A model generated the notes under the pieces. The model did no database searches and was not told where the DNA came from. It worked only from the letters and a program-made list of their open reading frames with translations. Source: Deltaproteobacteria bacterium (GTDB lineage: Bacteria; Myxococcota_A; UBA796; JAFGLY01). Taken from it: 62,731 nucleotides of DNA. Where the stretch lies: contig JBFYZZ010000078.1 of the NCBI GenBank assembly GCA_041309225.1, positions 1-62,731 of the forward strand. The letters are read 5' to 3'. Positions 18,576 through 53,527 of this stretch are shown piece by piece; the first letter of the stretch is position 1, and every line of letters begins with the position of its first letter. Position numbers and translations under genes: made by a program.

Positions 18576-18860
18576 ATGAAGTACTGGCGTACTCCCCTGG
18601 ACCTGGACCACATCACGGTCCCCCGCGGCGAGGTCCACATCCTCGTCGAACGCTGCAAGGGGTGCGGCTTTTGCGTCGAGTACTGCCCCAAGGGGGTGCT
18701 GGCCATCTCCGAGGCGTTCAACCACAAGGGCTACCACCCCCCCGAGGTGGTGAAGCCCGAGGAGTGCGTGAACTGCAACCTGTGCGAGATGATCTGCCCG
18801 GACTTCGCGATCTACTCGGTGGCCCTCCCCCCGGCGCCGGCCACCGTCACGTTCCGGTAG
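18576..18860 (+). CDS. korD: 2-oxoacid:ferredoxin oxidoreductase delta subunit (2x[4Fe-4S] ferredoxin-like)
   Basis: ORF 18576..18860. Motifs CKGCGFCVEYCP and CVNCNLCEMICP. Sits directly upstream of the alpha, beta and gamma subunits (D-A-B-G/C order, as in oorDABC-type operons). Confidence 0.85.
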   Translation: MKYWRTPLDLDHITVPRGEVHILVERCKGCGFCVEYCPKGVLAISEAFNHKGYHPPEVVKPEECVNCNLCEMICPDFAIYSVALPPAPATVTFR

Positions 18861-18901
18861 CTGGGCCGCGCCGCCACGGCCGGCCCCGAGGAGGATGGTT
18901 C

Positions 18902-20059
18902 GTGTCCGCTGATCCTGCAGGAGTGCTCACCGGCGTCCACTACCTGGACGGCGACTTCGCCTGCGGCGAGGGCGCGATGGCTGCGGGGTGCCGGTTCGTG
19001 GCCGGCTACCCGATCACCCCGTCCACCGAGGTCGTGGAGCGCATCGGACGCCGATTCCCCATGATGGGGGGCGTCTTCATCCAGATGGAGGACGAGCTCG
19101 CCAGCATGGCGGCCATCGTCGGGGCGTCCTGGACCGGCACCAAGACGATGACGGTGACCAGCGGGCCGGGGTTCAGCCTGATGATGGAGAACATCGGCCT
19201 CGCCGCCATGATGGAGGCGCCCTGCGTCGTCGTGAACGTGCAGCGGGGCGGGCCCTCCACGGGCCTGCCCACCATGGTCGGCCAGGCCGACATGATGCAG
19301 GCACGCTGGGGATCCCACGGCGACTACCCCATCATCGCGCTCTGCCCGCAGTCCCCGCAGGAGGCCTTCGACCTCACGGTCGAAGCCTTCAACCTCGCTG
19401 AGACCTGGCGCACCCCGGTGCTCCTGCTCATGGACGAGTGCGTGGGCCACATGACCGAGAAGGTGGTCATCCCGCCCGCCGAGCGGATCCACGTGGTCAA
19501 GCGCAAGCTGACCGACAAAAAGCCCGAGGAGTACCGTCCCTTCGACGTGGGCGACGGCTGGGTGCCCGAGTTCGCGCGGGCGGGCGACGGGTACCGGTTC
19601 CACGTCACGGGCCTCACCCACGACGAGCGCGGGTACCCGAGCATGACCGTCGAGTGCCAGGCCACGGCGATCCGGCGGCTCGTGGACAAGATCCGGCGCA
19701 ATGCGGACCGCATCGTCCGGTTCGAGGAGGATGGCGTCGACGACGCCGACGTGGTCGTGGTCGCCTACGGCATCACAGCCCGCGTCGCGCGGATGGCGAT
19801 CGAGATGGCGCGGGCGCAGGGGGCCAGGGTCGGCTTCCTGCGCCTCGTCGTGGCGTGGCCGTTCCCGGAGGCGCGGATCCGGGAGCTGGCCGGCCGGGTC
19901 CGTGCCTTCGTGGTGCCCGAGATCAACCTCGGGCAGATGGCCCTCGAGGTCGAACGCTGCGCGGCCGGACAGGCGCGCACGTCGTGCGTCTCCCACGCCG
20001 GCGGCGGCGTGCACGACCCCGAGGAGATCTGCCGCGCGATCCTGGAGGCCGTCCGATGA
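18902..20059 (+). CDS. korA: 2-oxoacid:ferredoxin oxidoreductase alpha subunit
   Basis: Part of ORF 18662..20059. GTG 18902 follows GAGGAGGA. Motifs GEGAMAAGCRFVAGYPITPSTE and TSGPGFSLMMENIG. Confidence 0.85.
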   Translation: MSADPAGVLTGVHYLDGDFACGEGAMAAGCRFVAGYPITPSTEVVERIGRRFPMMGGVFIQMEDELASMAAIVGASWTGTKTMTVTSGPGFSLMMENIGLAAMMEAPCVVVNVQRGGPSTGLPTMVGQADMMQARWGSHGDYPIIALCPQSPQEAFDLTVEAFNLAETWRTPVLLLMDECVGHMTEKVVIPPAERIHVVKRKLTDKKPEEYRPFDVGDGWVPEFARAGDGYRFHVTGLTHDERGYPSMTVECQATAIRRLVDKIRRNADRIVRFEEDGVDDADVVVVAYGITARVARMAIEMARAQGARVGFLRLVVAWPFPEARIRELAGRVRAFVVPEINLGQMALEVERCAAGQARTSCVSHAGGGVHDPEEICRAILEAVR

Positions 20060-20946
20060 GCCCCGCTTCCGAGCAGCGTCCCGGCGAGGAGCAGCATCCC
20101 ATCACGCCCTACATCCGCATGGACCGGATGCCCCACATCTGGTGCCCCACCTGCGGCATCGGGACCGTCGTGAAGTGCTACGTCCAGGCGCTCCTCGAGG
20201 AGGAGATCGACCTCGACAAGGTGGCGGTCGTGTCGGGCATCGGCTGCACCGGCCGCGTGGCCGGCTACGTCAAGCTCGACTCCTTCCACTCCACGCACGG
20301 CCGCGCCATCCCCTTCGCCACGGGCCTCAAGCTCTGCCGGCCCGAGCTGCTGGTCACCGTGTTCTCGGGGGACGGCGACCTGGTCGGCATCGGCGGCAAC
20401 CACTTCATCCACGCCGCCCGCCGCAACCAGGATCTCCTCGTCATCCTGGTCAACAACTTCATCTATGGCATGACCGGCGGGCAGAACGCACCCACCACCC
20501 CGCTTGGAGCGAAGTCGTCGACCATGTCGTTCGGCAACTTCGAGCGTCCTTTCAGTCTGCCGCACCTCGCGGCGTCGTGCGGGGCCACCTACGTCGCCCG
20601 GTGGACGTCCCTCCACATCCGGCGCCTCACCCGGTCCTTCCGGGAGGCCAGCCGGCGCAGGGGCTTCCGGTTCATCGAGGTCATCGCGCCCTGCTCCACC
20701 CTGTACGCTCGCCTGAACAAGCTGGGCACGGGCTACGACCTCATGAAGTTCTACCACGACTACGCCGAGATTCGGAACGGGGCGGACACCCGGGAGCTGG
20801 ACATCGAGTTCCAGTCCCGGATCGTGTGCGGCAAGTTCGTCGACGTGGAGAAGCCCACCTACCAGCAGGCCATGGACGCCCACTACCGCAAGGCCCTGGG
20901 GTCCAGCTACGTGCCCATGAAGCCGGAGGGAGGGTGGCTGCCATGA
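20056..20946 (+). CDS. korB: 2-oxoacid:ferredoxin oxidoreductase beta subunit (TPP/[4Fe-4S])
   Basis: Part of ORF 19438..20946. ATGA overlap with the korA stop. Motifs WCPTCGIG, GIGCTGR and GDGDLVGIGGNHFIHAARRN (TPP-binding GDG). Confidence 0.85.
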   Translation: MSPASEQRPGEEQHPITPYIRMDRMPHIWCPTCGIGTVVKCYVQALLEEEIDLDKVAVVSGIGCTGRVAGYVKLDSFHSTHGRAIPFATGLKLCRPELLVTVFSGDGDLVGIGGNHFIHAARRNQDLLVILVNNFIYGMTGGQNAPTTPLGAKSSTMSFGNFERPFSLPHLAASCGATYVARWTSLHIRRLTRSFREASRRRGFRFIEVIAPCSTLYARLNKLGTGYDLMKFYHDYAEIRNGADTRELDIEFQSRIVCGKFVDVEKPTYQQAMDAHYRKALGSSYVPMKPEGGWLP

Positions 20947-21530
20947 ACCGGACCGAGATCCGCATCACGGGGTTCGGCGGCCAGGGCGTCGTCCTGTGCG
21001 GCTACGTCATCGGCCGTGCATGCGCCATCCAGGCGGGCCAGCACGCCACCATGATCCAGTCCTTCGGGCCCGAGGCCCGGGGCTCGTCGTGCAGCGCCAC
21101 CCTGGTCGTCTCCGACCAGCCCGTGCTGTACCCCTACATCCGCCACCCGGACATCTTCGTCGTGATGTCCAACGACGGCTACGAGAAGTACGCCTCCGAG
21201 CTCAAGGACGACGCGGTGATCGTGTACGAGCGGGATCTGGTCCACCCGGAGCCCCGGCCCGGCCAGCGGGCCTACGGCGTGCCCTCCACCCGCATCGCCG
21301 AGAAGCTGGGGCGGGCCCTCATCCAGAACATCGTGATGCTCGGCTTCTTCGGTGCCGTGACGCGCATCGTGCCCCGGGACGAGATGCGGGAGGCGGTCCG
21401 GAATTCGGTGCCCGCCGGCACCGAGGCGCTCAACCTGAAGGCGTTCGACGCCGGATGGGCCTGGTTCGACGAGCAATACGGCGCCGACGGGGCTCCAGCC
21501 GGTGCGGCGCGTTCCGCGACCACGGGGTGA
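20943..21530 (+). CDS. korG: 2-oxoacid:ferredoxin oxidoreductase gamma subunit
   Basis: Part of ORF 19701..21530. ATGA overlap with korB. N-terminus IRITGFGGQGVVLCG is typical of gamma subunits. Confidence 0.85.
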   Translation: MNRTEIRITGFGGQGVVLCGYVIGRACAIQAGQHATMIQSFGPEARGSSCSATLVVSDQPVLYPYIRHPDIFVVMSNDGYEKYASELKDDAVIVYERDLVHPEPRPGQRAYGVPSTRIAEKLGRALIQNIVMLGFFGAVTRIVPRDEMREAVRNSVPAGTEALNLKAFDAGWAWFDEQYGADGAPAGAARSATTG

Positions 21531-21533
21531 GCC

Positions 21534-24500
21534 ATGACCACCGACGCTGCCCCTCCCCGCCGCGCCCTGGTGATCGGAGGCGGGATCGCGGGGATCCAGG
21601 CCGCCCTCGACCTCGCGAGCGCCCGGGTGCGCGTCACCCTGGTGGAGACGTCGCCGTCGCTGGGCGGGCGGATGGCCCAGCTGGACAAGACCTTCCCCAC
21701 CATGGACTGTGCGATATGAATCCTCGGCCCTAAGGCCATGGATGCCGGTCGGCATCCCCTCATCGACGTCGTCACCCACGCAGAGGTCGTCGCCTGCAGC
21801 GGCGAGCCGGGGGCGTTCCGGGTCCGGGTCCGGAAGCGGCCGCGCTACGTCCGGGAGGATCGCTGCGTGGCCTGCGGGCTCTGCGTGGTTGCGTGCCCGC
21901 AGGTGGGCGGCAACGAGTTCGACATGGGGATCAAGGCCCGGAAGGCCATCTACCGGCCGTTCCCGCAGTCCGTGCCCGCGACCTACGTGGTGGACCCGGA
22001 CGCCTGCCTCAACTTCCTCAACTTCCTGACCCCTCGCCAGCGCGATCGCCTCGAGCGCATCCGCTCGATCAAGGCCCGGAAGGACCCGGCGTACCGCACC
22101 GACTTCCTGGCCTGCGGCCACTGCTTGGCGGCCTGCGAGGTCCAGGCCATCGACTTCGACATGGCCCCCGAGGAGTTCGACCTCGACGTGGGCGCGATCC
22201 TCGTCGCCACGGGGTTCCAGGAGTTCGACGCCCGGGCGCTGCGCACCTACGGCTACGGCCGCCTGCCCAACGTGGTGACCAGCCTCGAGCTCGAGCGGAT
22301 GCTCAACGCCTCGGGCGTCACCCAGGGCCACGTGATCCGGCCCAGCGACGCCCGCACGCCCCGCCGGATGGTCTTCGTGCAGTGCGTGGGCGCCCGGGGC
22401 GAGGGGGGTCGTCCCTACTGCAGCCGGTTCTGCTGCATGAACGCCGTGAAGGACTCCCTTCTCGTGCGCCAGCACGATCCGGGGGTGGAGGAGGTCACCA
22501 TCCTCTACACGGACATGCGCGCCTTCGGGAAGGGGTTCGACGACTTCGTCGAGCGCGCCCGCCGCGAGCGGAGCGCCCGCTTCATCCGGGGCCGGCCGGC
22601 CACGATCCGCCACGACCCCACCGACGACACGCTCGAGGTCTTCGTGGAGGACACCCTCGCCCACGAGCCGATGCGGATCCGGGCCGATCTCGTGGTCCTC
22701 TCGGTGGCGGCGGCCCCCAACGAGGGCGCCGTGGAGCTGGCTCGGATGCTCGGGATCGAGACCGACGTCTACGGCTTCATCGCCCGCCTGGACCCCGCCG
22801 TCTCGGCGGTGGAGACCCGCCGCGAGGGGGTGTTCGTGGCCGGCAGCGCGGTCGGGCCGCAGGTCATCCCCGACTGCGTGGCCCAGGCCTCCGCCGCCGC
22901 CGCACGGGCCGCACGCTTCCTGGCCGCCGAGCGGGTCGAGGAGGACCGGACGCCCCCGCCTCCCCTGGATCTCTCGGGCCCTCCCCGCATCGGCGTCCTG
23001 GTCTGCCACTGCGGGGTCAACATCGCGGGCGTCCTCGACGTGAAGGCCCTGGCCGCCCATGCGGCTGCCCAGCCCGGGGTCGTGGTGGCGGTGGACGACG
23101 CCTTCGCCTGCTCCTCCACCGGCCAGGAGACGCTCGCAGCGCTCGTGGCCGAGCACCGGCTCAACCGCGTGGTGGTGGCGGCGTGCACGCCCCGCACCCA
23201 CGAGCCCGTCTTCCGGGAGACCTGCGCCCGGCTGGGCTTCAACCCCTACCTCCTGGAGATGGTCAACATCCGCGACCAGTGCTCCTGGGTCCACGCCGGC
23301 CACCCGGCCGAGGCCCAGGAGAAGGCCCGGGCGCTGCTCCGGATGGGCATCGCCCGCGCGCGCCACCTCGAGCCCCTCGAGCAGGGGCGGGCGCCGGTCA
23401 CGCGCCATGCGCTCGTCGTCGGCGGGGGCATCGCGGGCATCCAGGCGGCCACCGACCTCGCGGAGCAGGGCTTCCCGGTCACGCTCGTGGAAGCGGCCTC
23501 CCGGCTGGGCGGCCGACTCGCCGCCCCCCACCTGTGGCGGCTCTACCCCAACGACCGGGCGGCCTCCGAGGTCCTCGCCCGCAAGGTGGAGCGCCTCCAC
23601 GCGAGCGGGGCCCGGGTGCTCACCGGTACCGAAGTCACGGGGATCACGGGCTTCGTCGGCTCGTTCCAGGCCACGCTCCGGGGCGCGGAGGACGAGATCC
23701 TGCCCGTGGGGGTGGTCATCCTGGCCTTCGGGGCCGACCTCGCCGACCCCGGTGGAGCGTACGGCCACGGCCGGCTCCCCAACGTGATCACCAGCGAGGA
23801 CCTCGAGCGCGCGTTCCACGAGGGGGGGCCGCGCATCGACGGGGCCCTGCCCCGGAGCGCGGCCTTCGTGCTCTGCGTCGGCTCCCGGGAGGAGCACGGC
23901 TTCACCGGGTGCTCCCGGTACTGCTGTCCCACAGCCGTGAAGCAGGCCCTCGCGCTGGCCCGCCAGGGCGTGGACTGCACGGTGTTCTACCGAGACATCC
24001 GCACGGTCTCGTGGGGCACCGAAGAGATGTACCGCGAGGCCCGCGGCGCCGGCGTGCTGTTCGTGCGCATCCCGCCCGGCGAGCGTCCGCGGGTGCTGGG
24101 CGAAACCCGCGCCGAGCGGGTCCGCTGCCGCGACGACCTCCTGGGCCGGGAGATCGAGGTGCCGGCGGACCTCGTGGTGTTGAGCGTGGGGATGCGACCG
24201 CGCCAACCCGAGACCGCCCACTTCCACGACATCCTCAAGGTGAGCGTGGGCCTCGACGGGTTCTTCCTGGAGCGCCACCCGGAGCTGGCCCCGGTGGAGA
24301 CCGCCGTCGAGGGCGTCTTCCTGGCGGGCACCGTGCAGGGGCCGAAGGACCTCGTGGACACCGTGGCCCAGGCATCCGCCGCCGCGGCCAAGGCCTCCGT
24401 GCTGCTCGCCCACGACCAGATCCGGCTCGATCCGGCGGTGGCCGTGGTGGATCCCCTGAAGTGCCGCGGCTGCGGCCAGTGCGTCGAGATCTGCAGGTTC

Positions 24501-24683
24501 CAGGCCCCCTCCCTCAAGGAGATCGAGCCGGGCGCCTGGATCGCGGAGGTGAACGCCTCCCTGTGCAAGGGCTGCGGCACCTGCGCCTCGTGGTGCCCCT
24601 CCGGCGCCATCTCGGCCCGGCACTTCACGGAGCGCCAGATCGTCTCCATGGTGGACGCCCTCTTCGCGGAGGGATCGCGATGA
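21534..24683 (+). CDS. hdrA: HdrA-like flavoprotein, tandem two-unit form, selenocysteine-containing (UGA 21717..21719 recoded)
   Basis: ORFs 21534..21719 and 21738..24683 are in the same frame, separated only by TGA plus 6 sense codons. Read-through gives [22 protein letters not shown], colinear with FPTLDCAACILTPKMV in the Cys paralogues at 42824 and 48393. Two FAD Rossmann motifs ([32 protein letters not shown]). Internal HdrA N-domain Cys set ([10 protein letters not shown] / FACSSTG / VAACTP). Ferredoxin-type Cys clusters, including C-terminal [11 protein letters not shown] and [12 protein letters not shown]. Confidence 0.8.
21740..21757 (+). promoter_or_regulatory. SECIS-like hairpin (7-bp stem GGAUGCC/GGCAUCC, GGUC loop) downstream of UGA 21717
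   Basis: Perfect inverted repeat ggatgcc-ggtc-ggcatcc read directly. The loop starts 30 nt after the U of UGA. The identical element follows the second in-frame UGA at 26895. Confidence 0.5.
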
Positions 24684-25111
24684 CCGCCCCCGCCGCCACC
24701 TGGAACCCGCGCATCGTCGTCTTCGCCTGCAACTGGTGCTCCTACGCCGGTGCCGACACCGCGGGGGTCTCGCGCGTCCAGCACCAGCCCCACTTCCGGA
24801 TCATCCGGGTGATGTGCTCGGGCCGCATCCAGCCCTCCTTCGTGCTCCGTGCCTTCGAGAAGGGCGCCGACGGCGTCCTGGTGTCCGGGTGCCACATCGG
24901 CGACTGCCACTACCTGTTCGGGAACGAACGGGCGGTGGAGCAGTTCGAGAAGACCCGCGCCGTGACGCGCGTGCTCGGGCTGGAGGACGACCGGCTGCGC
25001 CTGGAGTGGATCTCCGCCGCCGAGGGCGCCCGGTTCGCCCAGGTCATCGACGAGTTCACCGACCGCGTGCGGGCCCTGGGCCCCAGCCCCCTGGCCGCGG
25101 AGGCTCCATGA
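24680..25111 (+). CDS. mvhD: MvhD-like [2Fe-2S] electron-transfer subunit
   Basis: Part of ORF 21893..25111. ATGA overlap with the hdrA stop. Motifs [29 protein letters not shown] and LEWISAAEG. Confidence 0.85.
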
Positions 25112-26280
25112 GCAGCGCCTGCCGCGAGCGCCTCTCTGCCATCGCCGCCCGGACCCGCGCCTGGGCCTGCTACGACTGCGGCAAGTGCACGGCCACCTGC
25201 CCCGTCACCCGGATCGGCGGGTCGCTCTCGCCCCGCCGCACGGTGCTCTCCACCCACCTCCCGCACGCCGACCCGGCCGTCCACTCCGCCGACCTCGCCT
25301 CCTGCCTCACGTGCCGCGCCTGCGACCTCCGGTGCCCGGTCCAGGTGGACTACACGGGCCTCGTCCGGGAGCTGCGCACCCTCGCCCACGAGGAGGGCGC
25401 CGAGCCCGAGTGCCCCCACGGCGGGGCCCTCCAGTCCCTCATGCGGATGATGGCGCGGGGCACCCAGCGCCAGCAGCGCCTCGGCTGGATCGGGAGCGAC
25501 CTCCGCACGGATCCGGCCCGGGGCCACGTGTTCCTCTGGACGGGCTGCACCGTCTACTACGACGCCTTCTTCCCCGAGTATGGCATGCGCACGCTCGACG
25601 GCACCCGCGCCGCCGTCCGCCTGCTCAACGCGCTCGGGGAGGTGCCGGTGGTCTCCCCCGAGGAGGCGTGCTGCGGCCACGACCTCCTCTGGAACGGCGA
25701 TCGGCCGTCGTTCGAGGCGCTCGCCCGCCGCAACGCCGCCCTCCTGCGCGCGAGCGGCGCGAGCGTGGTGGTCGCGCCCTGTGCCGAGTGCGCCCGCACC
25801 CTCCGCCTCGACTATGCGCCGTTCCTGGGCGCGGGCGCTCCGCGGATCCTGCACCTCTCCGAGTACCTCCTCGAGCGGATCGCCGAGCTCCCCCTCACCC
25901 GGCCGGAGGCCGTGCGGGTCACCTACCAGGATCCCTGCCGCCTGGGCCGCCACCTCGGCGTGGTGGACGCCCCGCGTCGCCTGCTCGAAGCCGTGCCGGG
26001 CCTGGAGCGGGTGGAGATGGCCCACCACGGCCGCAACGCCACCTGCTGCGCCGGCGGCACCTGGTCCGCGTGCGACCGGTACGCCAAGAAGCTCCAGGTC
26101 GAACGCCTCAAGGAAGCCCGGGCCACCGGCGCGACGATTCTCGTGACCGCCTGCCCCAAGTGCCAGATCCACTTCCGCTGCGCCCAGAAGGACCCCAACC
26201 TGGGCCAGGACATCGCCATCGAGATGCGGGACGTCGCCCAGGTGCTGGCCGACGCCCTCCGACCCCTGGAGGCTCCATGA
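25108..26280 (+). CDS. HdrC-HdrB fusion (HdrD-like) Fe-S/CCG-domain subunit
   Basis: Part of ORF 24736..26280, with ATGA overlap. N-terminal [12 protein letters not shown] and [12 protein letters not shown] (2x[4Fe-4S]). Cys-rich CCG-type segments follow ([32 protein letters not shown]). Confidence 0.8.
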
Positions 26281-28739
26281 CCGATCCCGTCCAGAATCCT
26301 CCGAGCGACGAGGAGGTGCGCGTCGGCGTCTTCGTCTGCGACTGCGGCCTCAACATCGCGGGCGCCGTGGACTGCGGCGCCGTGGCGGAGTTCGCCGCCA
26401 CGCTGCCGGACGTGACCACGGTGGTCCGCAACAAGTACACCTGCGCGGATCCGGGCCAGAACGAGATCCGGAACGCGATCCGCCAGCACCACCTCAACCG
26501 GGTGGTGGTGGCTTCCTGCACCCCGCGCCAGCACGAGCCGACGTTCCGGCAGTGCGTGCTCGAGGCCGGCCTCAATCCCTACCTCATGGAGATGGCCAAC
26601 CTCCGCGAGCACTGCGCCTGGGTCCACCCCAACGACCGCGAGGCCGCCACGGCCAAGGCCATGGATCTCGTGGCCAGCGCCGTGGCCAAGGCCCGCTTCC
26701 TCCAGCCCCAGGAGGAGATGGTGGTCCCCGTCACGCGCCGGGCGCTCGTGATCGGCGGCGGGGTCGCCGGGATCGAGGCGGCGCTCGAGCTCGCGGATCA
26801 GGGGCACAAGGTCACGCTGGTCGAGAAGCAGCCCTCGATCGGCGGGATCATGGCCCAGCTCGACAAGACCTACCCCACCATGGACTGTAGCATATGAATC
26901 CTCGGGCCCAAGGCCATGGATGCCGGTCGGCATCCCAACATCGAGCTCCTGACCTTCTCCGAGGTCGACGACGTCTCCGGCTACGTGGGCAACTTCACGG
27001 TCCGGATCCGGAAGAAGGCCCGCTACGTGGACCCCACGGCCTGCAACGCCTGCGGGGAGTGCGCCAAGGTCTGCCCGCAGGTCCGCCCCGACGAGTACCA
27101 GATGGGGCTCTCGGCCCGCAAGGCCATCTACATCCCCTTCCCCCAGGCGGTGCCCTGCGCCTACGTCCTCGACATGGAGAGCTGTCTGGGCAACATCCCC
27201 ATCGCCTGCGGCAAGTGCGCCGACGCCTGTGAGAAGAAGGCCATCGACTACGACGATCGCGACGAGATCGTCACCCGCGAGATCGGCTCGATCATCGTGG
27301 CGGTCGGGGCCGACGTCTACGACCCCACCCAGGACGACGAGTACGGCTACACCCGGTTCCGGAACGTGATCACCTCCATGGAGTTCGAGCGCCTGATCTG
27401 CGCGGGCGGCCCCACCGGCGGGCACTTCGTCCGGCCGAGTGACCGGCGGCGGCCGACGCGGATCGGGTTCGTCCAGTGCGTGGGCTCCCGGAATCCGAGG
27501 CTGAACCGTCCCTGGTGCTCCAACATCTGCTGCATGAACACGGTCAAGGACACCCTGCTCCTCGCCGACCACTACCCCGACACCGAAAACGTGGTGTTCT
27601 ACCAGGATATTCGTTCGTTCGGCAAGGGCTTCGAGGACATGTTCCAGCGCTCCAAGCAGGCGGGCACCCGGTACGTGCGCGGCCTGCCGGGGGAGATCGT
27701 GGAGGACCCGGCCACGGGCAACCTCCACGTCACCGTGGAGAACACCACCGCCGGCCGGATCGAGCGGTACGAACTGGACATGGTCGTGCTCTCGGTGGGC
27801 GTGGAGCCTCCCAGGGACCTCGCGAGGATCTCGGGCCTGCTCACGCTCTCCAAGACGTCCGACGGCTTCTTCATGGAGTCGCATCCCAAGCTCAAGCCGG
27901 TCGACGCGCCCACCCGTGGCGTCTACTTCGCGGGCTTCTGCGAGTCCCCCAAGGACATCAAGGACTCGGTCTGCCAGGCCGGGGCCGCGGCGTCCCGGGC
28001 CGGAGCCCTGCTCAACGCGGGCCGCATCCGGATCGAGGCCATCACCTCCCGGATCGATCCCGCAGCCTGCACGAAGTGCGGCCTGTGCGCCCAGGTCTGC
28101 CCCTACGGGGCGATCCGGTGGCAGAAGGGCGAGGTGGCCACGGTGGTGGAGGCGGCCTGCGCCGGGTGCGGCGCCTGTGGCGCCACCTGCCGATCCGGCG
28201 CCATCACGATGCGGCACTTCACCGACGACCAGCTCCTGGCCCAGGTCCGGGCGGTGCTCGCGCATCGGCCCGAGGACAAGGTGTTCGTGTTCGCCTGCAA
28301 CTGGTGCTCCTACGCGGGCGGGGACATGGCGGGCATCTCCCGCATGGCCTACCCCGCCTCCAACCGCGTGGTGCGGACCATGTGCTCCGCCCGTGTCTCG
28401 GAGGAGATGGTGGTCGAGGCCTTCCGGTGCGGTGCACCCGTGGTGCTCGTCTCGGGCTGTCACTACGCGGACTGCCACTACATCAGCGCCAACCGCCAGA
28501 CCGTGAAGCGGGTGGATCGGCTGTGGGACCGACTCGAGCGGCTGGGCATCCGGCCCGAGCGGCTGCAGCTCGAGTGGATCAGCGCGGCGGAGGGCCAGAA
28601 GTTCGCCGCCGTCATGCGGCGCCTCGAGGATCTCAGGCGCACCGTCACCGCCGAGGAGATCGCCCTCACGCGCGCGGCGCTCGCCGCGCCGGCGAAGCCC
28701 GCGCCGAAGCCCGCCCGGGCCACCGCGCCCCAGGAGTGA
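26277..28739 (+). CDS. hdrA: HdrA-MvhD fusion flavoprotein, selenocysteine-containing (UGA 26895..26897 recoded)
   Basis: The tail of ORF 25185..26897 and ORF 26916..28739 share one frame across the TGA, giving [22 protein letters not shown]. Full HdrA N-domain ([10 protein letters not shown] / YTCADPG / VASCTP). FAD motif [16 protein letters not shown]. Fused C-terminal MvhD module ([38 protein letters not shown]). Confidence 0.8.
26918..26935 (+). promoter_or_regulatory. SECIS-like hairpin (GGAUGCC-GGUC-GGCAUCC) downstream of UGA 26895
   Basis: Same 18-nt element and same spacing as at 21740..21757. Confidence 0.5.
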
Positions 28740-28742
28740 GCC

Positions 28743-28916
28743 ATGGCTCCCACGACCGAGACGTTCCGGTGCATGGCCTGCGGCCACGAGTACGAGGAGC
28801 TCGTGGAGAAGGGCGTGGACCGGGAGCGGCAGTGCCCCCGCTGTCGCTCCAACAGCATCCGCCAGCTCAAGCGGAAGCCCGCGCCGGACGCGGGCGCCGG
28901 GGGATCGGCGACATGA
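28743..28916 (+). CDS. FmdB-type zinc-ribbon mini-protein (57 aa)
   Basis: Not in the supplied ORF track. Hand translation: [57 protein letters not shown]. CxxC...CxxC ribbon. Starts 4 nt after the hdrA stop, and its stop overlaps the next start (ATGA). Confidence 0.55.
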
Positions 28917-30325
28917 GCGACGAGAAGCCGGTTCTCACCGTCGACTTCGCATTCCGGCGCGAGCTGGCCCGGAAGGTGGAGGGCAACCTCGCCTCCTTCT
29001 GCTACCAGTGCGGGGCCTGCGTGGGGGACTGCCCGGCCGCGGCCTACGATCCGGCCTTCAATCCACGGACCCTCATGCTGGAGGTCCTGTACGGCGCGAG
29101 CGGGCACCTGCTCGGGCCCGACTCGCCGCTGTGGCTCTGCACGAACTGCTACGCCTGCCACGAACGCTGCCCCCAGCAGGTGAAGCCGGTCGAGGTCATC
29201 ATCGCGCTCAAGAACATGCTCCACGACCGGGGCCTGCACCCCCCGGCCGTGGACCGGGTGATCCGGTCGTTCGAGGAGACCGGCCGCACCACGCCGGTCA
29301 CGCCGGCCGTGGAGCGCACGCGGGAGGCCCTCGGCCTCCCCCCGCTCGAGCCCGTGCCGGTGGCGGAGATCCGCGCCCTCCTGGGCGACGACGCCCCCGC
29401 CGAGGCGCCACGGTCGGCACGGCTCCCGGCCCCGCCACCCTCCCCGGCGCGCCGGTTCGCCTTCTTCCCCGGCTGCCTGATCCCCACCCGCATGCCCGCC
29501 ATGGAGCTCGCCATCCGGGAGGCGCTCGCCCGGCTGGAGGTGGAGGTGGTGGACCTGCCCGGGGCCTCGTGCTGCCCGGATCCCATCTACTTCAAGTCGA
29601 GGGACAAGGCCGACTGGCTCGCGGTGGCCGCCCGCAACCTCTCCCTGGCCGAGGATCTCGGGCTCGACCTCTTCACCAACTGCTCGGGGTGCACCGCCAC
29701 GCTGTCCGAGACCGTGCACCTCATGCAGGACCCCGTCCTCCGCGAGCGGACCAACAACCGGCTCGCCCGGATCGGACGGACCTACCAGGGCACCTCCAGG
29801 GTCCGCCACGTGGTCACCCTGCTCCGCGACGTCGTGGGGTACGAGGCGATCCGGGCCTCGGTCGTCCGCCCCCTCGAGGGGCTGAAGGTGGCCATCCACT
29901 ACGGCTGCCACCTCCTCAAGCCCAGCGCCGTCATGAACGTGGACGACCCGGACGATCCGCATGTCCTGGAAGACCTCGTGCGTGCGCTCGGGGCCGAGCC
30001 GGTGCGCCACCGCAACTGGTACCTGTGCTGCGGCAAGGCCTGCCAGGACGAGGACCTCCCGTCGCGCATGATGCGCGATCTCCTCGGCGCGGTCCACGCG
30101 GAGGAGGCCGAGCTGCTCTGCCTCATCTGCCCCACCTGCTTCGCCCAGTTCGACTACGGCCAGGCCCGCGTGGCGAAGCAGTTCGACGCCGACTTCCACA
30201 TGCCTGTCGTATACTTGTTCCAGCTCCTGGCGTTCGCGCAGGGCACGCCCTACGAGCGGCTGGGGTTCGACCGTCAGCGGTTCAAGCCGGAGGCGCTCCG
30301 AAGGTTCGAGACCCCCGGGCCGTGA
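28913..30325 (+). CDS. HdrC-HdrB fusion Fe-S/CCG-domain subunit
   Basis: Part of ORF 27476..30325. Motifs [12 protein letters not shown] and [12 protein letters not shown]. HdrB-like half has [26 protein letters not shown] and ICPTCFAQF. Confidence 0.8.
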
Positions 30326-30352
30326 TCGAGGCGCCCCGCATCCGGAGGGCCC

Positions 30353-30940
30353 ATGAAAGGCAAGGACGAGACCCTCAAGGACGGGACGGTGGTCCACATC
30401 CGCCGCGTGACGATGCACGACCTCGACCGCCTGATGGCGTTCTACCACGCCCTGCCGACGGAGGATCGCCGTTACTTGAAGTTCGACGTGACGGATCGCG
30501 AGGCGGTCCGCCAGCGCCTCCGCCTCATGCGCGGCGGTCGCCTGCTCCGCATCGCGGCCCTGCTCGACGACGAGGTCATCGGCGACGGCGTCCTTGAGTT
30601 CTCCCCGGAGAGCTGGCGTCGCGACCAGGCGGAGGTCCGGGTGCTGGTGGCCCGTCCGTTCCAGCACCGGGGCGTGGGCAGTGCGCTCATACGCGAGCTG
30701 TACTTCATGGCCATCGCCCGGGGCGTCCACAAGCTCGTGGGGAAGATGATGCGGCCCCAGCACGCGGCCATCGCGATCTGCCACAAGCTCGGCTTCCGCG
30801 AGGAGGTATTGATCCCGGACTACGTCCGGGACGTCTCCGGTCAGCCGCAGGACCTCGTCGTGCTGATCGCCGACATCCAGGACCTGTGGCACGAGCTCGA
30901 GTGGCTCTACCGCGACACGGACATGCGCCGCTGGCAGTAG
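30353..30940 (+). CDS. GNAT-family N-acetyltransferase
   Basis: ORF 30353..30940. Acetyl-CoA-binding-type segment [24 protein letters not shown] precedes the ATG. Confidence 0.8.
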
Positions 30941-31006
30941 CGCCGCGCCCTTCCCCCTGCCCCCGGTTTCCGGGTATCCTCCGGGTGACCCTTCCCGGAG
31001 GCTGCC

Positions 31007-31684
31007 ATGCGCTCGCTCCTCCTCCTCCTCGCCCTGCTGCTGGCCGGGCTTCCGGCCTGCGCCACGGACGACACCGGCACGCCGGACGACACCGACGCCG
31101 ACACCGACACCGACGCCGACACCGACGCCGACACCGACGCCGACACCGACGCCGACACCGACGCCGACACCGACGCGGATGCCGACGCCGACACCGATGC
31201 CGACCCCGACACCGACGCGGACGCCGACGCCGACACCGACGCGGATGCCGACGCCGACACCGACGCGGATGCCGACGCCGACACCGACGCGGATGCCGAC
31301 GCCGACACCGACGCGGATACCGACGCCGACGCGGATGCCGACGCCGACGCGGATGCCGACGTGTTCGACGTCGTGGTGTCGGATGTCGATGCCAGCTGCG
31401 GGTCCAGCGGCTCCGAGACGCCGCCCCGCCTCTCGGCACGGGCCACCGGGTCGGGCACCATCTCGGTGCTCCACGAGAACTTCGAGTATGGCTGCTGCCC
31501 CACCATGGAGGTGCGGGCCTCGGGGGACGTGCGTGCCGGCACGATCGCCGCCGAGTACGCCATCCTCAGCGATCCCTGCGACTGCATCTGCCTGCTCGAC
31601 CTGACCTGGACCGGCTCGGGCATCCCCGCGGGCACGTGGACGCTCACGGAGGGCGCGGACAGCACCCCGGTCAAGGTGCCCTGA
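31007..31684 (+). CDS. Lipoprotein with long acidic ([10 protein letters not shown])n repeat and Cys-rich C-terminal domain
   Basis: ORF 31007..31684. [18 protein letters not shown] is a lipobox. About 90 residues consist only of D/T/A(/P). The globular tail has 6 Cys (CGSSG, YGCCPT, DPCDCIC). Confidence 0.7.
31085..31360 (+). repeat. In-frame tandem repeat (12-nt gacaccgacgcc units grading into 24-nt gacaccgacgcggatgccgacgcc units)
   Basis: Read directly. Encodes DTDA then DTDADADA periods. It produces long spurious antisense ORFs (for example 28478..31474, 30705..31439, 30907..31698). Confidence 0.9.
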
Positions 31685-31706: not shown

Positions 31707-33047
31707 TCAGTCCGGAATCCCGTACTTGCGCAGCTTGTAGCGGAAGGCGTTGCGCTCGAGCCCGAGGGACGCGGCCGCCCGCGCCTTGACCCCGTCGTAC
31801 CGGTCCAGGGCGCGCCGGAGGATCTTCTCCTCCACGGCCTCCATCCAGGCCACGAGATCGAAGTCGCCCTCGGGCACGCCGGGCAGATCCGAGACAGCGC
31901 CCTGGGGCTGACCCTCCAACGGGAGATCGCGGGACGTCACGCGGTCGCCCGGGACGAGCACCGCAACGCGCTCGGCCATGTTCAGGAGCTCGCGGATGTT
32001 GCCCGGCCAGGAGTAGTCGAGCAGGCGCTGGAGCGCGGAGGGATCGAGGGTGGGCAGATCGCGGCCGGCCCGCCGGCAGGCGTGGCGGAGGGCGTTCCCG
32101 AAGAGGAGGAGCACGTCGCCGCCACGGGCCCTCAGGGGGGGGAGCTCGATTGGGATGACGTTGAGGCGGAAGTACAGATCGCGGCGGAACTCCGTGGCGG
32201 TGGCCAGGTCCCGGTGCGTGGCCGCGATGATCCGCACGTCCACCGGGCGATCGCGGGTCTCCCCCACGCGCCGCACGGTCCGTTCCTCGATGGCCCGGAG
32301 CAGGTTCGTCTGGGCCGAGGCGGACAGCTCGGCGACCTCGTCCAGGAACAGGGTACCCCCGTCGGCCGCCTCGAAGAGGCCGGCCCGGTCGGCGGTGGCA
32401 CCGGTGAAGGAGCCCTTGGCGTGGCCGAACAGCTCCGCCTCCACGAGGGTGGATGGGATGGCCCCTGCATTCACGGCCACCATCGGCCCCTTGGCGCGCG
32501 CCGAGTGCTGGTGGATGCGACGGGCGAGCAGCTCCTTGCCCGTCCCCGTCTCCCCCGTGACGAGCACGTTGGCATCGCTCGCCGCCGCGCGATCCGCCCG
32601 CGAGAGCGCCGCCCGGAGGGAGGCCGAGGTACCGACGATGGGATCGGTCTCCGAAGCCCCCACCTGCTTCGCCGCTGCCTGCAGCCGCCGGAGCTCGGCG
32701 GCGTTCCGGACCTGGACCTCCAGCTCCGAGAAGCGGATGGGCTTGGTGAGGAAGGAGAACGCCCCGGCGCGGGTCGCCTCGATCGCGCGGTCGATGGACG
32801 CGAACGCGGTCACGAGGATGACGGGCAGGTCCGGATCGAGCGCGTGGGCCTCCCGCATCAGGCCCATGCCGTCGAGGCCGTCCATCCGCAGGTCGGTGAC
32901 GATGACGTCGGGCATGTCGTTGCCGAGCAGCGTCAGCGCCGCGCGGCCGTCCCCGGCGGTGACGGTGGTGTAGCCGGCGTCGGTGAGGGCCTCGGCGAGG
33001 GCCTCGGCGCTCGGCAGGTGATCATCGACGACGAGCACGCGCGTCAT
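31707..33047 (-). CDS. Sigma-54-dependent response regulator (NtrC family: REC + AAA+ + Fis-type HTH)
   Basis: C-terminal 447 codons of ORF 31707..35801(-). REC domain ([18 protein letters not shown]). Walker [15 protein letters not shown]-type loop as GSFTGA. C-terminal [24 protein letters not shown]. Confidence 0.9.
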
Positions 33048-42819: not shown

Positions 42820-42823
42820 TCCC

Positions 42824-44818
42824 ATGCCCAGGATCGGCGTCTTCGTCTGCCACTGCGGTTCCAACATCGGCTCGGTGGTCCACGTCCCCGAGGTGGTCCA
42901 GTTCGCCTCCGGGCTCCCGGGCGTCGTCCACGCGGCGGAGCACAAGTACATGTGCTCGGATCCCGGCCAGGAGATGATCCGCCAGGCGATCCGCGAGCAC
43001 GGGCTCGAGCGGGTGGTCGTGGCGTCCTGCTCCCCGCTCATGCACGAGGCCACGTTCCGCAAGACCTGCGAGGAAGCCGGCCTGAACGGGTTCCTCTTCC
43101 AGATGGCCAACATCCGGGAGCAGGTCTCCTGGGTCACCGAGGACAAGGCCAGGGCCACCAAGAAGGCCATGGCCGTGGTCCAGGCGGCCGTCCACCGGGT
43201 CGTCGGACACGTCCCGCTCCAGGTCGGCACGGTACCGGTCACCCCGGCCACCCTCGTCATCGGGGGCGGAGTCGCGGGCATCGAGGCGGCCCTCCAGGTG
43301 GCCTCGTCCGGCACCCGGGTGCACCTGGTCGAGCGCGAGCCGTCCATCGGCGGCCACATGGCCAGGTTCGACAAGACCTTCCCCACCCTCGACTGTGCCG
43401 CCTGCATCCTCACCCCCAAGATGGTGCAGGCCAACACGCACCCGATGATCACGGTCCACGCCTGGTCCGAGGTCGTGGAGGTCTCGGGCTTCGTGGGCAG
43501 CTTCAAGGTCCGGATCCACCACAAGGCCACCTACGTGGATCACCAGAAGTGCACGGGGTGTGGGGCCTGCCTCCAGAAGTGCCCCCAGCGCAAGATCCCC
43601 TCCGAGTTCGACTACGGCATGATGAACCGGCGGGCCATCTACATCCCCTTCGCCCAGGCCGTCCCCAACAAGCCCATCATCGATCGGGAGCACTGCCAGT
43701 GGTTCCAGGCCGGCAAGTGCCGGATCTGCGAGAAGGTCTGCGAGGCGAAGGCCATCGACTACGACCAGGATCCGGCCGGCTGGACGGAGGAGGTCGAGGT
43801 CGGCAACATCATCGTCGCCAGCGGCATGAAGGTCATGCAGCCGACCGACATGAAGCACCTGGGCTACGGCCGCCTCCCCGACGTCTACACGGGCATCGAG
43901 TTCGAGCGGCTCTGCCACGCCTCGGGGCCGACCGAGGGCCACATCGTCTGCAAGACCGGCGGCGTGGTCAAGGCCGGGGGCCGGCCTCCCAAGGCCATCG
44001 CCCTGGTCCACTGCATCGGGAGCCGCGATCAGCAGCACCACGCCTACTGCTCCCGGGTGTGCTGCATGTACGCGCTCAAGTACGCGCACCTCGTCAAGGA
44101 GCACGTCCCGGGCTGCGAGGTCTACGACTTCTACATCGACATGCGCTGCTTCGGGAAGGGCTACGAGGAGTTCTACAACCGGCTCCTGCGGGAGGACGTG
44201 CGCTTCGTCCGCGGGAAGGTGGCCGAGGTCACCGACGCGGCCCTCTACCCGGGCGAGGACGGCCGCATGGTGGTCCGCGTGGAGGACACGCTCGTCGGCG
44301 CCGTCCGTCGCATCCCCGTGGACATGGTCGTGCTCTGCTCGGCGCTCGAGCCCGCCGAGGGCGCCAAGGCCCTCGCCCAGACCCTCCACATGGGCTGCTC
44401 CTCGGACGGCTTCTACCTCGAGCGCCACCCCAAGCTGGCCCCGGTCTCCACCGCGTCCGCGGGCATCTTCGTGGCCGGCTGCTGCCAGGGCCCGAAGGAC
44501 ATCCCCGACTCGGTCGCCCAGGGCGCCGCCGCGGCGGCCCAGGCCCTGGCCATGATCATGAAGGGCCAGGTGGAGGTCGAGCCCACCACGGCCCACGTGA
44601 TCGACGACCTCTGCTCGGGCTGCCAGATCTGCATCCCGCTGTGCCCCTACGAGGCCATCCACCGCGACGAGGCCAGGCGCAAGGCCTACGTGGAGCCCGC
44701 GCTCTGCAAGGGTTGCGGCACCTGCGTGGGCGCCTGCCCCTCCGGCGCGCTCCAGCAGTGGGGCTTCGACGACACCCAGATCCTCGCCGAGCTCGAGGGC
44801 ATCCTCGCGGCCCGATAG
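42824..44818 (+). CDS. hdrA: Heterodisulfide reductase subunit A (Cys form, complete domain set)
   Basis: ORF 42824..44818. Motifs VCHCGSNIG / YMCSDPG / [22 protein letters not shown] and FPTLDCAACILTPKMV. Ferredoxin motifs CTGCGACLQKCP, CRICEKVC, CSGCQICIPLCP and CKGCGTCVGACP. Confidence 0.9.
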   Translation: MPRIGVFVCHCGSNIGSVVHVPEVVQFASGLPGVVHAAEHKYMCSDPGQEMIRQAIREHGLERVVVASCSPLMHEATFRKTCEEAGLNGFLFQMANIREQVSWVTEDKARATKKAMAVVQAAVHRVVGHVPLQVGTVPVTPATLVIGGGVAGIEAALQVASSGTRVHLVEREPSIGGHMARFDKTFPTLDCAACILTPKMVQANTHPMITVHAWSEVVEVSGFVGSFKVRIHHKATYVDHQKCTGCGACLQKCPQRKIPSEFDYGMMNRRAIYIPFAQAVPNKPIIDREHCQWFQAGKCRICEKVCEAKAIDYDQDPAGWTEEVEVGNIIVASGMKVMQPTDMKHLGYGRLPDVYTGIEFERLCHASGPTEGHIVCKTGGVVKAGGRPPKAIALVHCIGSRDQQHHAYCSRVCCMYALKYAHLVKEHVPGCEVYDFYIDMRCFGKGYEEFYNRLLREDVRFVRGKVAEVTDAALYPGEDGRMVVRVEDTLVGAVRRIPVDMVVLCSALEPAEGAKALAQTLHMGCSSDGFYLERHPKLAPVSTASAGIFVAGCCQGPKDIPDSVAQGAAAAAQALAMIMKGQVEVEPTTAHVIDDLCSGCQICIPLCPYEAIHRDEARRKAYVEPALCKGCGTCVGACPSGALQQWGFDDTQILAELEGILAAR

Positions 44819-44826
44819 GAGCGACC

Positions 44827-45279: not shown

Positions 45280-45281
45280 CC

Positions 45282-46244: not shown

Positions 46245-46266
46245 TCCCGACCGAAAGGCCACTTCG

Positions 46267-47733: not shown

Positions 47734-47736
47734 CCC

Positions 47737-48392: not shown

Positions 48393-50198
48393 GTGAGAAA
48401 AGCCGTCTTCTTCTGCCAGGTCGGCGACGAGACCCCGCTGAACGTGGACTCGGTCGCGAAGTACGCTTCCAACCTCCCGGGTGTGGAGCACGTGGAGGTG
48501 CTCGGCATCCGTCCGTCCCTGGACCCCACGCGGATCGCCGAGCGGATCCGGACCGTCCGGCTGGACCGGCTCGTGATCGCGGGCGACCAGCCCGGCTTCT
48601 TCAAGCCGGCCTTCACCCGCGCCATGGACCTCGCCAGCTGCTCGCCCCTGGAGGTCTTCCTCGCGCCCTTCGCGGCGTGGGGCGCCCCCGCCGAGGACGC
48701 CACCGAGCGGGCCAAGGCCATCGTGGCGTGCGCGTGCCAGGGCGTGCCCTTCACCCTGGCCGCCGTCCCGGCGTCCACGCCCGTCCACCCCGCCACCCTC
48801 GTCATCGGGGGCGGCGTGGCGGGGATCCAGGCGGCGCTCGAGATCGCCGACGCCGGCAAGCAGGTGCACCTCGTCGAGCGCACCGGCACGCTGGGCGGTC
48901 ACATGGCGATGTTCGACAAGACCTTCCCGACGCTCGACTGCGCGGCCTGCATCCTCACCCCCAAGATGGTGGCGGTGGGCCAGCACCCGATGATCAACCT
49001 CATGTCCTGGTCCGACGTGGAGGAGGTCTCGGGGACCCCCGGCGCCTACAAGGTCCGCATCCTACGGAAGGCCCGGAGGGTGGACGTCTCGGCCTGCGTG
49101 GCCTGCGGGATCTGCGCCGAGGTCTGCCCCGTGACCGTGCCGAGCGAGTTCGACGCCGGCATCTCCACGCGGAAGGCCGTGTACGTCCCCTTCCCCCAGG
49201 CGGTCCCGAACGCCTACCTGGTGGATCCGGCCTCCTGCACCTGGGTCCTGAGCGGGGGCCAGAAGTGTGGCGCCTGTGCGCGCAAGTGCCCCAAGGACTG
49301 CATCGACCTGAGCGAGAAGGACCGCGTAGAGGAGGTGGAGGTGGGGAGCATCATCCTGGCCACGGGCTACGAGGTCTTCGACGCGAAGCGGATCGAACGG
49401 TACGGCTACGGCGTCCTGCCCAACGTGCTCACGGCCCTCGAGTTCGAGCGGCTCACCAACGCGTCCGGGCCGACCGGCGGCCGCATCGTCACGCGCACGA
49501 AGCGGTACAACAAGCGCACCAAGCGGGACGAGTGGGTGTTCCAGGCCGACGGGCCCAGCCCGCGGAGCGTGGCCATCATCCACTGCGTCGGATCGCGGGA
49601 CAGCGCCTACAACGCATACTGCTCTCGCGTCTGCTGCATGTACTCCCTCAAGTTCGCCCACCTGGTGCGGGAGAAGCTGCCCGAGGCCGCGTGCTACGAG
49701 TTCTACATCGACATGCGGGCCTTCGGGAAGGGCTACGAGGAGTTCGCCGAGCGCATCAAGGCGGAGGGGACCCACGTGGTCCGGGGTCGCACCGCCTCGG
49801 TCCAGATGGTGGGGGAGGAGATGGTGGTCCGCGGTGAGGACATCCTCGAGGACCGCCTGCTCGAGTTCCCCGTGGACATGGTGATCCTCGCCGTGGGGCT
49901 CGTGCCGGCCTCGGGCACGGACGAGCTGGCGCGTACGCTCGAGGTGCAGCGCGATCCCGACGGCTGGTTCGCCGAATTCGACTACGACGGCAATCCCACC
50001 GAGACCCAGCGCGGGGGGGTGTACGTGGCCGGGATGTGCCAGGGCCCGAAGGACATCCCCGACACCGTGGCCCAGGCCTCGGCCGCCGCGGCCGGCGTCC
50101 TGAGGGCCATCTCCTCCGGGCGGGGCACCGGGTCCCTGTCCAGCCTCTCGCTGTCGGTCATCGAGGCGAGGGCCAGGACCCTCGCGCGGTCCACCTGA
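48393..50198 (+). CDS. HdrA/QmoA-like flavoprotein (keeps DCAAC motif, degenerate N-terminal Cys domain)
   Basis: Part of ORF 48300..50198, GTG 48393. [16 protein letters not shown] and FPTLDCAACILTPKMV present. The N-domain has lost 3 of its 4 Cys (FFCQVGDE / VLGIRPS / VIAGDQP). Ferredoxin motifs CVACGICAEVCP and CGACARKCP. Confidence 0.8.
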   Translation: MRKAVFFCQVGDETPLNVDSVAKYASNLPGVEHVEVLGIRPSLDPTRIAERIRTVRLDRLVIAGDQPGFFKPAFTRAMDLASCSPLEVFLAPFAAWGAPAEDATERAKAIVACACQGVPFTLAAVPASTPVHPATLVIGGGVAGIQAALEIADAGKQVHLVERTGTLGGHMAMFDKTFPTLDCAACILTPKMVAVGQHPMINLMSWSDVEEVSGTPGAYKVRILRKARRVDVSACVACGICAEVCPVTVPSEFDAGISTRKAVYVPFPQAVPNAYLVDPASCTWVLSGGQKCGACARKCPKDCIDLSEKDRVEEVEVGSIILATGYEVFDAKRIERYGYGVLPNVLTALEFERLTNASGPTGGRIVTRTKRYNKRTKRDEWVFQADGPSPRSVAIIHCVGSRDSAYNAYCSRVCCMYSLKFAHLVREKLPEAACYEFYIDMRAFGKGYEEFAERIKAEGTHVVRGRTASVQMVGEEMVVRGEDILEDRLLEFPVDMVILAVGLVPASGTDELARTLEVQRDPDGWFAEFDYDGNPTETQRGGVYVAGMCQGPKDIPDTVAQASAAAAGVLRAISSGRGTGSLSSLSLSVIEARARTLARST

Positions 50199-50199
50199 G

Positions 50200-53524: not shown

Positions 53525-53527
53525 GGC

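Follow-up and report, generated by a model that had tools for sequence, protein, structure and literature searches.

A UGA codon within a bacterial HdrA2-type gene very probably encodes selenocysteine and is followed by a conserved SECIS-type hairpin

Introduction

The contig JBFYZZ010000078.1 of a Deltaproteobacteria bacterium (assembly GCA_041309225.1; 62,731 nucleotides (nt), analysed in full and called the window here) carries a gene of the HdrA2 type, in which HdrA is fused to MvhD, and this gene is crossed by an in-frame TGA codon. HdrA2 has been characterised in Methanosarcina within HdrA2B2C2. The locus raises a simple question: does the TGA end the gene, as the gene calls have it, or is it read through, and if so, with which amino acid? 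An earlier note on this DNA had proposed that the codon encodes selenocysteine (Sec, U) and that a hairpin just downstream of it belongs to the signal. Our analysis makes it very probable that, in the gene at 26277-28739, the UGA at codon 207 is read as Sec under the direction of this hairpin, which has the appearance of a selenocysteine insertion sequence (SECIS). Below we present the evidence from the reading frame, from the homology of the residue, from the conservation of the codon and from the hairpin itself, and we weigh the alternatives against it.

Results

The reading frame continues through the TGA

The TGA at 26895-26897 closes the open reading frame (ORF) 25185..26897, and the ORF 26916..28739 lies in the same frame; on the ends of both ORFs, on their shared frame and on the place of the TGA, the sequence and its translation agree with what the earlier note had claimed. 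The start that it implied, 25185, does not hold: the gene starts at the ATG at 26277 according to the gene calls, in a 4-nt overlap with the stop of the preceding gene (25108-26280). The upstream part of ORF 25185 overlaps this preceding gene in another frame, and its start is a stop-to-stop artefact of a genome with 72% G+C. Around the codon (26880-26940) the frame runs through ATG GAC TGT AGC ATA into the TGA, and from there through ATC CTC GGG CCC AAG GCC into ATG GAT GCC GGT CGG CAT CCC. The gene calls divide the locus into 26277-26897 and 26916-28739.

The codon-position bias of the G+C content is unbroken across the TGA, with values of about 0.95 at third and about 0.4 at second codon positions. 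When the whole window was scanned for TGAs with coding bias on both sides, the scan returned this codon, the TGA at 21717 and two ordinary gene boundaries (30323 and 53522), and it revealed no further recoded TGA in the window beyond 21717 and 26895. TGA also serves as an ordinary stop in this region: among the eight genes that begin with the oxidoreductase gamma subunit and close with the 3'-terminal GNAT gene of the operon, seven end in TGA, HdrA2 itself included.

An assembly error at the TGA is ruled out, because another public assembly from the same population (GCA_041309265.1) has no mismatch over window positions 23916-31204, TGA included, and in a third one (GCA_041309205.1) the encoded flanking proteins are identical and codon 207 is TGA. 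The nearest public relative is 'Deltaproteobacteria bacterium Zod_Metabat.425', with 86.6% DNA identity over 6.6 kb.

The joined product is a full-length HdrA2-type protein

The joined product of 820 residues matched the NCBIfam model for HdrA2 (NF040770) with 1133 bits, at a cut-off of 1100, over profile positions 1-775 of 777, and only with the joined reading frame is the curated cut-off passed over the full model. Pfam assigned flavin adenine dinucleotide (FAD)/Rossmann, Fer4 and FlpD (MvhD) domains to it. Residues 12-660 correspond to residues 2-649 of HdrA in the complex from Methanothermococcus thermolithotrophicus (5ODC_A, E 3e-240) and the MvhD part corresponds to 5ODC_D (E 1e-36), so that HdrA and MvhD are thereby covered end to end. 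The full HdrA layout is present: an N-terminal Fe-S domain, a FAD/thioredoxin-reductase-like domain, an inserted ferredoxin domain and a C-terminal ferredoxin domain.

The TGA interrupts the FAD-binding domain, splitting a conserved motif in its middle. In an ungapped alignment block U207 pairs with Cys197 of 5ODC_A and occupies the second Cys position of the DCxxC motif. In the methanogen enzyme Cys197, which lies in the thioredoxin-reductase domain of one HdrA, takes part in coordinating the N-terminal [4Fe-4S] cluster of the partner HdrA (PMC9012536). The structure of the Methanococcus maripaludis HdrA super-assembly, obtained in 2026 by cryo-electron microscopy, has Sec197 at the equivalent position, adjacent to a Cys; a thiol-selenol relay between FAD and the [4Fe-4S] cluster was proposed for it, and the authors leave its role unresolved (PMC13518236).

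Codon 207 is conserved as TGA across phyla

We scanned the genomes of 185,579 species representatives, obtained 392 loci and analysed the best 80. These come from Acidobacteriota (Thermoanaerobaculia, Holophagae, Sulfomarinibacter), Planctomycetota (mostly Phycisphaerae), Gemmatimonadota, Zixibacteria, Eisenbacteria and metagenome-assembled genomes (MAGs) labelled 'Deltaproteobacteria'. The equivalent of codon 207 is TGA in all of these 80 best species-level orthologues, which represent at least five phyla, and TAA or TAG in none. After the TGA the frame stays open for a further 611-640 codons, typically about 613, in 71 of the 75 loci with a visible end. The HdrA2 protein is 80-92% identical across phyla and is under strong purifying selection.

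Protein searches gave the same picture from two sides. With the whole joined protein as query only full-length relatives were returned (805-824 residues, 63-67% identity, many labelled HdrA2, Chloroflexota), and all 119 full-length relatives listed have Cys at position 207 (PTMDCSIC). With the N-terminal 206 residues as query the best 120 matches were 82-88% identical (the window's own fragment 100%) and all ended in ...PTMDCSI; 119 of them are 198-208 residues long, that is, they are cut at the same codon. One database relative of the N-terminal fragment, P0121 (JGI, 280 aa), has an internal duplication of about 75 residues before the terminal ...PTMDCSI and lies on a 1.1-kb contig; an artefact of assembly is the probable cause. 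When metagenomes were scanned with Cys-type HdrA2 as the seed, 74 loci with the motif were obtained, and in these more distant relatives the codon is TGA in 56 and TGT or TGC in 18.

A hairpin follows the TGA and is tied to it

The 18-nt hairpin, GGATGCC-GGTC-GGCATCC in DNA letters, has exactly two copies on the forward strand of the window (21740-21757 and 26918-26935), and each copy begins 20 nt past an in-frame TGA (21717 and 26895). The same two palindromic sites match the reverse strand with 2 mismatches, which gives 4 matches in total; shuffled windows contained 0.31 matches at up to 3 mismatches and 4 matches were reached in none of 100 shuffles. The HdrA-HdrA gene (paralogue 1) and the HdrA2 gene agree in 39 of the 41 nt that start with the TGA and finish with the hairpin, though their proteins are only 47% identical. 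The spacing between UGA and hairpin is identical at both sites and in all aligned relatives, with no gaps. Folded alone, the hairpin has a free energy of -11.5 kcal/mol, and it is also predicted in its context; the 6-bp core of the family reaches -8.2 kcal/mol, and the U-A and G-U variants found in relatives -6.1 and -5.5 kcal/mol (16-nt core alone).

The pairing follows the codon. The 6-bp core is fully paired in 136 of 138 TGA loci versus none of the 18 loci with a Cys codon (Fisher 1e-21, not corrected for phylogeny). Among the metagenome loci with TGA the pattern GAUG[C/U]C-GGUC-G[G/A]CAUC is fully paired in 54 of 56, while the 18 Cys loci have mixed codons there and 2-5 of the 6 positions paired. 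Both groups encode D-[A/V]-G-R-H-P at the position of the hairpin. The Cys-type loci therefore serve as a natural control for the pairing, because the same peptide is encoded in the presence and in the absence of the hairpin.

The constraint on the hairpin acts at the level of the RNA. Across 132 distinct TGA-type sequences one stem pair is compensatory (C-G in 93, U-A in 33, U-G in 5, unpaired in 1) and an optional seventh pair, which is formed in the window, is G-C in 48 and C-G in 11; shuffled and slid controls stayed below the observed covariation score. The loop columns are invariant or at least 90% conserved in this set, and the GGUC loop of the window is the same loop as that of Escherichia coli fdhF. 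Synonymous sites were analysed in the window and in those 79 of its nearest orthologues whose flanking sequence was long enough: the synonymous codon entropy is 0 at +5, +6, +8, +9, +10 and +12 and 0.23 at +11, against 0.3-1.9 for the majority of degenerate codons up to 60 codons away in both directions. The fixed hairpin codons GAT, GGT and CAT are non-preferred synonyms in HdrA2 genes.

A few loci depart from the pattern. In L147 (892-940) a TGA stands with no hairpin (peptide DCPI*...EAWRHP), and this locus may be a pseudogene or the user of a different element. The TGA-type locus L115 has the loop GGCA instead of GGUC, and in the TGA-type locus L129 a single stem pair is mismatched. The metagenome loci L084-L094 and L153, which encode Cys-type HdrA2, often have ATA TGT followed by a decayed hairpin, for example GATGTGGGGCGACATC with 5 of 6 pairs; this looks like a change from Sec to Cys by a single A-to-T substitution with subsequent erosion of the SECIS.

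Two further candidates for parts of the signal were rejected. An extra helix, GGSCC...GGCC (+9 to +20; window 26904-26915 and 21726-21737), is invariant in the closest clade, predicted by RNAalifold and accompanied by fixed synonymous sites in AAG and GCC; it does not belong to the element in general, since distant TGA-type relatives have AAGATG instead and the helix is lost. ATA precedes the TGA in 76 of 80 sequences (the 79 orthologues and the window), and it is not a Sec-specific signal: Cys-type relatives mostly have ATA before TGT, and many distant TGA-type relatives use ATC.

The hairpin agrees with the bacterial consensus SECIS

The consensus model of the bacterial SECIS asks for 3-9 nt in the apical loop, 4-16 bp in the upper stem, a distance of 16-37 nt from UGA to loop and a free energy of at most -7.5 kcal/mol, with a G as the first or second loop base and, as a rule, a G or U after it (PMC13188914). 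The window hairpin agrees on every count: its loop GGUC has 4 nt and begins with G then G, its stem has 7 bp, the stretch from UGA to loop (26898-26924) has 27 nt and the energy is that given above. Additionally, the UGA stands where homologues have Cys, be it the TGC of the window paralogues, the Cys of the 119 full-length relatives or the TGT or TGC of the 18 metagenome relatives. According to a general rule the stems have 6-8 bp and the conserved loop G lies about 20 nt after the UGA (PMC4605307); in the window hairpin this distance is about 28 nt, which belongs to the longer end of the range.

Alternative readings of the UGA

One could argue that the locus holds a split gene, in which translation stops at the UGA after 206 residues and restarts at the ATG at 26916 for another 607, and the two pieces assemble. 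Gene callers annotate the locus in this way, and the window does have an ATG 6 codons past the TGA. However, this ATG is lineage-specific: the closest orthologues have ATH (Ile) in its place, and among the orthologues the first in-frame start lies anywhere between codons +2 and +85, with no conservation. The two pieces would moreover part within the FAD-binding domain, where the break separates two residues of a conserved motif. Nor would a split gene explain why all 138 loci have TGA as the stop and none has TAA or TAG, or why the hairpin is retained only together with TGA. We consider this arrangement very improbable.

An equally slim chance is left to the idea that the hairpin drives recoding of the UGA with another amino acid, for example with Cys by way of a tRNA(Cys) that resembles tRNA-Sec, a kind of tRNA described from some anaerobes. 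The inserted amino acid is indistinguishable by sequence analysis alone, and the homologous position accepts Cys. Against this, the HdrA structure of M. maripaludis has Sec at the position (PMC13518236), HdrA has long been established as a selenoprotein family (PMC1794560), and the hairpin has standard SelB-type features, with no hint of a variant system in the window.

A nonsense mutation or an artefact of sequencing or assembly in a decaying gene, for which the presence of a stop codon speaks and nothing more, is hardly conceivable: the same DNA was recovered in one other assembly and the TGA with identical flanking proteins in a third, 80 of 80 species-level genomes and another 56 metagenome loci share the TGA at this codon, the coding bias is intact on both sides, the identity across phyla points to strong purifying selection, and further frame disruptions in related genomes, which the earlier note had named as the mark of a pseudogene, are rare, with the downstream frame truncated in just 3 of the 75 complete loci. 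The gene is not a pseudogene. Both this explanation and the split gene fall because the TGA is kept in 80 of 80 orthologues, the frame is open and there is no conserved restart codon.

Paralogues and surroundings of the gene

The features of the window are collected in Table 1. The earlier note had counted two Sec-type and two Cys-type copies of the motif, had placed U on the second Cys of DCxxC and had noticed the same hairpin with the same spacing in paralogue 1. All of this is borne out by our analysis: the copies have TGA at 21717 and 26895 and TGC at 43403 and 48948, the placement of U is supported by the ungapped alignment to Cys197/Sec197 and by the conservation of the TGA, and both 18-nt hairpins start 20 nt past their TGA.

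Table 1. Coordinates of the HdrA genes, of the proposed recoding elements and of the operon genes in the window
Feature	Position	Strand	Remarks
HdrA2-type gene, HdrA fused to MvhD (predicted selenoprotein)	26277..28739	+	820 codons, U = codon 207, ordinary TGA stop at end
UGA as probable selenocysteine codon (U207)	26895..26897	+	in frame; coding bias on either side
SECIS-type hairpin	26918..26935	+	stem 26918-26924/26929-26935, 7 bp; loop 26925-26928, GGUC
Paralogue 1, HdrA-HdrA fusion gene	21534..24683	+	probable Sec codon 21717-21719; identical hairpin 21740-21757
Cys-type HdrA paralogue 42824-44818	TGC at 43403..43405	+	equivalent position; no hairpin downstream, fold z-score 0.09
Cys-type HdrA paralogue 48300-50198	TGC at 48948..48950	+	equivalent position; no comparable hairpin, fold z-score 0.03
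Operon with both Sec-type genes	18576..30325	+	from Pfam, NCBIfam and gene calls
Ferredoxin	18576-18860	+	operon gene
2-oxoacid:ferredoxin oxidoreductase alpha, beta, gamma	~18.9 kb to 21530	+	operon genes
MvhD	24680-25111	+	operon gene after HdrA-HdrA (Sec-type)
TfrB/GlpC-like CCG protein	25108-26280	+	operon gene before HdrA2 (Sec-type)
FmdB zinc ribbon	28743-28916	+	operon gene after HdrA2 (Sec-type)
HdrC-HdrB fusion	28913-30325	+	two genes downstream of HdrA2

The four HdrA paralogues are 39-47% identical. In paralogue 1 the first HdrA unit has the presumed Sec (U62) and misses the N-terminal Fe-S domain, and the second unit has the N-terminal CxCG...C Fe-S domain and a replaced DCxxC motif. 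Complementary halves of this kind are known for fused HdrA proteins (PMC9012536), and paralogue 1 matches their pattern of a heterodimer in one chain. The Sec-type copies adjoin a 2-oxoacid:ferredoxin oxidoreductase and the Cys-type copies sit with two Mvh-type [NiFe] hydrogenases. Judged by identity and gene context, the four HdrA genes seem to be old paralogues with different partners, not interchangeable backups.

Successive genes of the operon share 4-nt ATGA overlaps (24680-24683, 25108-25111, 26277-26280 and 28913-28916), which suggests translational coupling along the operon. No in-frame TGA was found in the MvhD domains and CCG (GlpC-like) proteins of the window. The same gene order is present on a chromosome of Phycisphaerales (Planctomycetota; CP070718.1, L083 1958-14483), with HdrC and HdrB listed separately; both Sec-type genes are annotated there as split ORFs, of 60+1013 and 202+553 residues. 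The counterpart of the first site on CP070718.1 has its TGA at L083 5164-5166 and an identical hairpin at 5187-5204. We found no literature specific to this operon.

A sigma-54-dependent response regulator and a histidine kinase are encoded on the minus strand at 31707-34447, directly downstream of the operon, and they may regulate it. The second redox region (41080-56514) contains the two Cys-type HdrA genes and two sets of Mvh-type [NiFe] hydrogenase: the small subunits lie at 45282-46244 and 53528-54496, the large subunits end at 47733 and 55959, and maturation proteases follow each set. The presence of a [NiFeSe] hydrogenase in the window was considered and rejected, as both large subunits have Cys (DPCFxC).

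Discussion

Our data imply that the HdrA2-type gene of the window is one gene and that its codon 207 most probably specifies Sec. Several points weigh against this interpretation and should be stated together. The search of the window with Rfam gave no matches at gathering thresholds, and a permissive scan of the site gave only a chance match (E=7.5). The minimal SECIS of E. coli fdhF is a 17-nt stem-loop located 11 nt past the UGA, with a bulged U in its 5' arm (PMC8659212); the window hairpin is unlike it, being located 20 nt past the UGA and having a perfect stem with no bulged U. Classical covariation comes from one pair only. The support thus comes mostly from conservation and from the association with TGA, and less from covariation, because the remaining stem positions are invariant. 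Genes for selA, selB, selD and tRNA-Sec were not found within the window, and the Sec-decoding trait of the host is assumed. Finally, the evidence for Sec is of the sequence level.

If the codon is read as Sec, the gene would yield one HdrA2-type flavo-iron-sulfur protein of 820 residues with Sec at 207. In the mRNA a 7-bp hairpin with the loop GGUC would fold 20 nt past the UGA. From the bacterial paradigm we infer that SelB together with Sec-tRNA(Sec) would sit on the hairpin loop while the UGA is in the ribosomal A site, and that the delivery of Sec would compete with release factor 2; UGA codons that have no hairpin would terminate normally. By analogy with the homologue structures, Sec207 would take the place of Cys197 of the methanogen HdrA and reach the N-terminal [4Fe-4S] cluster of the partner HdrA, where it could have a redox role.

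It is also possible, though we hold it to be somewhat doubtful, that the hairpin is a portable SECIS, which spread horizontally with an operon of about a dozen genes among at least five phyla and was kept in near-identical sequence in two paralogous genes. If so, one SECIS sequence would be read by the SelB proteins of very different phyla. The operon itself might then stand for an uncharacterised selenium-dependent complex, common in sediment bacteria, that couples the oxidation of 2-oxoacids to flavin-based electron bifurcation.

The finding leaves the knowledge of recoding itself unchanged; its consequences lie elsewhere. Public gene calls cut HdrA2 in more than 100 genomes and metagenome contigs into pieces of about 202-206 and about 553-607 residues, and reading the UGA as Sec restores the full length. 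If the reading is true, an energy-metabolism operon of Acidobacteriota, Planctomycetota, Gemmatimonadota and related sediment lineages would be selenium-dependent. Furthermore, the Sec-type and Cys-type clades of bacterial HdrA2 offer natural variants for probing the proposed electron relay at position 197.

Compared with known bacterial signals, the window element is at once typical and unusual. Like the SECIS of E. coli fdhF and the bacterial consensus, it forms a hairpin within the coding sequence immediately 3' of the UGA, and its small loop opens with G followed by G or U. In fdhF the conserved loop bases are G23 and U24 (PMC8659212), and the loop G/U of the window hairpin is displaced by about 9 nt in the 3' direction. 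Bacterial SECIS elements are usually poorly conserved in sequence (PMC13188914); in contrast, the element described here is near-invariant across phyla and between two paralogous genes.

The comparison with the Methanococcus pairs Vhu/Vhc and Fru/Frc, to which the earlier note had likened the Sec-type and Cys-type copies of the window, carries only so far. In both cases Sec-type and Cys-type members of one family occur in one genome. However, the window paralogues share 39-47% identity and differ in domain layout and in operon partners, so the likeness to isoenzyme pairs does not stand, and nothing in their sequences suggests that they substitute for each other under selenium scarcity.

With HdrA2 as defined by NF040770 the gene shares a full-length match above the cut-off and a fused HdrC-HdrB encoded two genes downstream. 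It differs in that the nearest full-length members, mostly from Chloroflexota, have Cys at the position and are 63-67% identical; the window gene would be a bacterial Sec form. Its bacterial host presumably has no heterodisulfide of coenzymes M and B (CoM-S-S-CoB).

Nor is a bacterial host for Sec-containing HdrA (Sec-HdrA) the surprise that the earlier note implied. Bacterial Sec-HdrA was catalogued in 2006 in Syntrophobacter fumaroxidans, Syntrophus aciditrophicus and Moorella thermoacetica, with seven copies in Syntrophobacter fumaroxidans, with hdrA-hdrA fusions and with Sec and Cys homologues in one genome (Zhang et al., PMC1794560), and the family also appears in current reviews (PMC13188914). 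The phenomenon is thus already known, and our gene is a further case of bacterial Sec-HdrA: it shares with the known examples from Methanococcales and bacteria the family, the residue, the multiple Sec copies next to Cys homologues and the hdrA-hdrA fusions. The window gene differs from them in being an HdrA-MvhD fusion within a 2-oxoacid:ferredoxin oxidoreductase operon, whereas the 2006 examples lie in an hdrA-frhD-frhG-frhA hydrogenase operon, in that the MvhD domains and CCG proteins around it have no in-frame TGA, and in its hosts, which are here Acidobacteriota, Planctomycetota, Gemmatimonadota and a lineage of 'Deltaproteobacteria' MAGs. Slightly beyond the literature consulted go three observations: HdrA2 of the Sec type forms an abundant clade found in several phyla, the SECIS of this clade is near-invariant across these phyla and between two paralogues with 47% identity, and its genes are consistently misannotated as two in public records.

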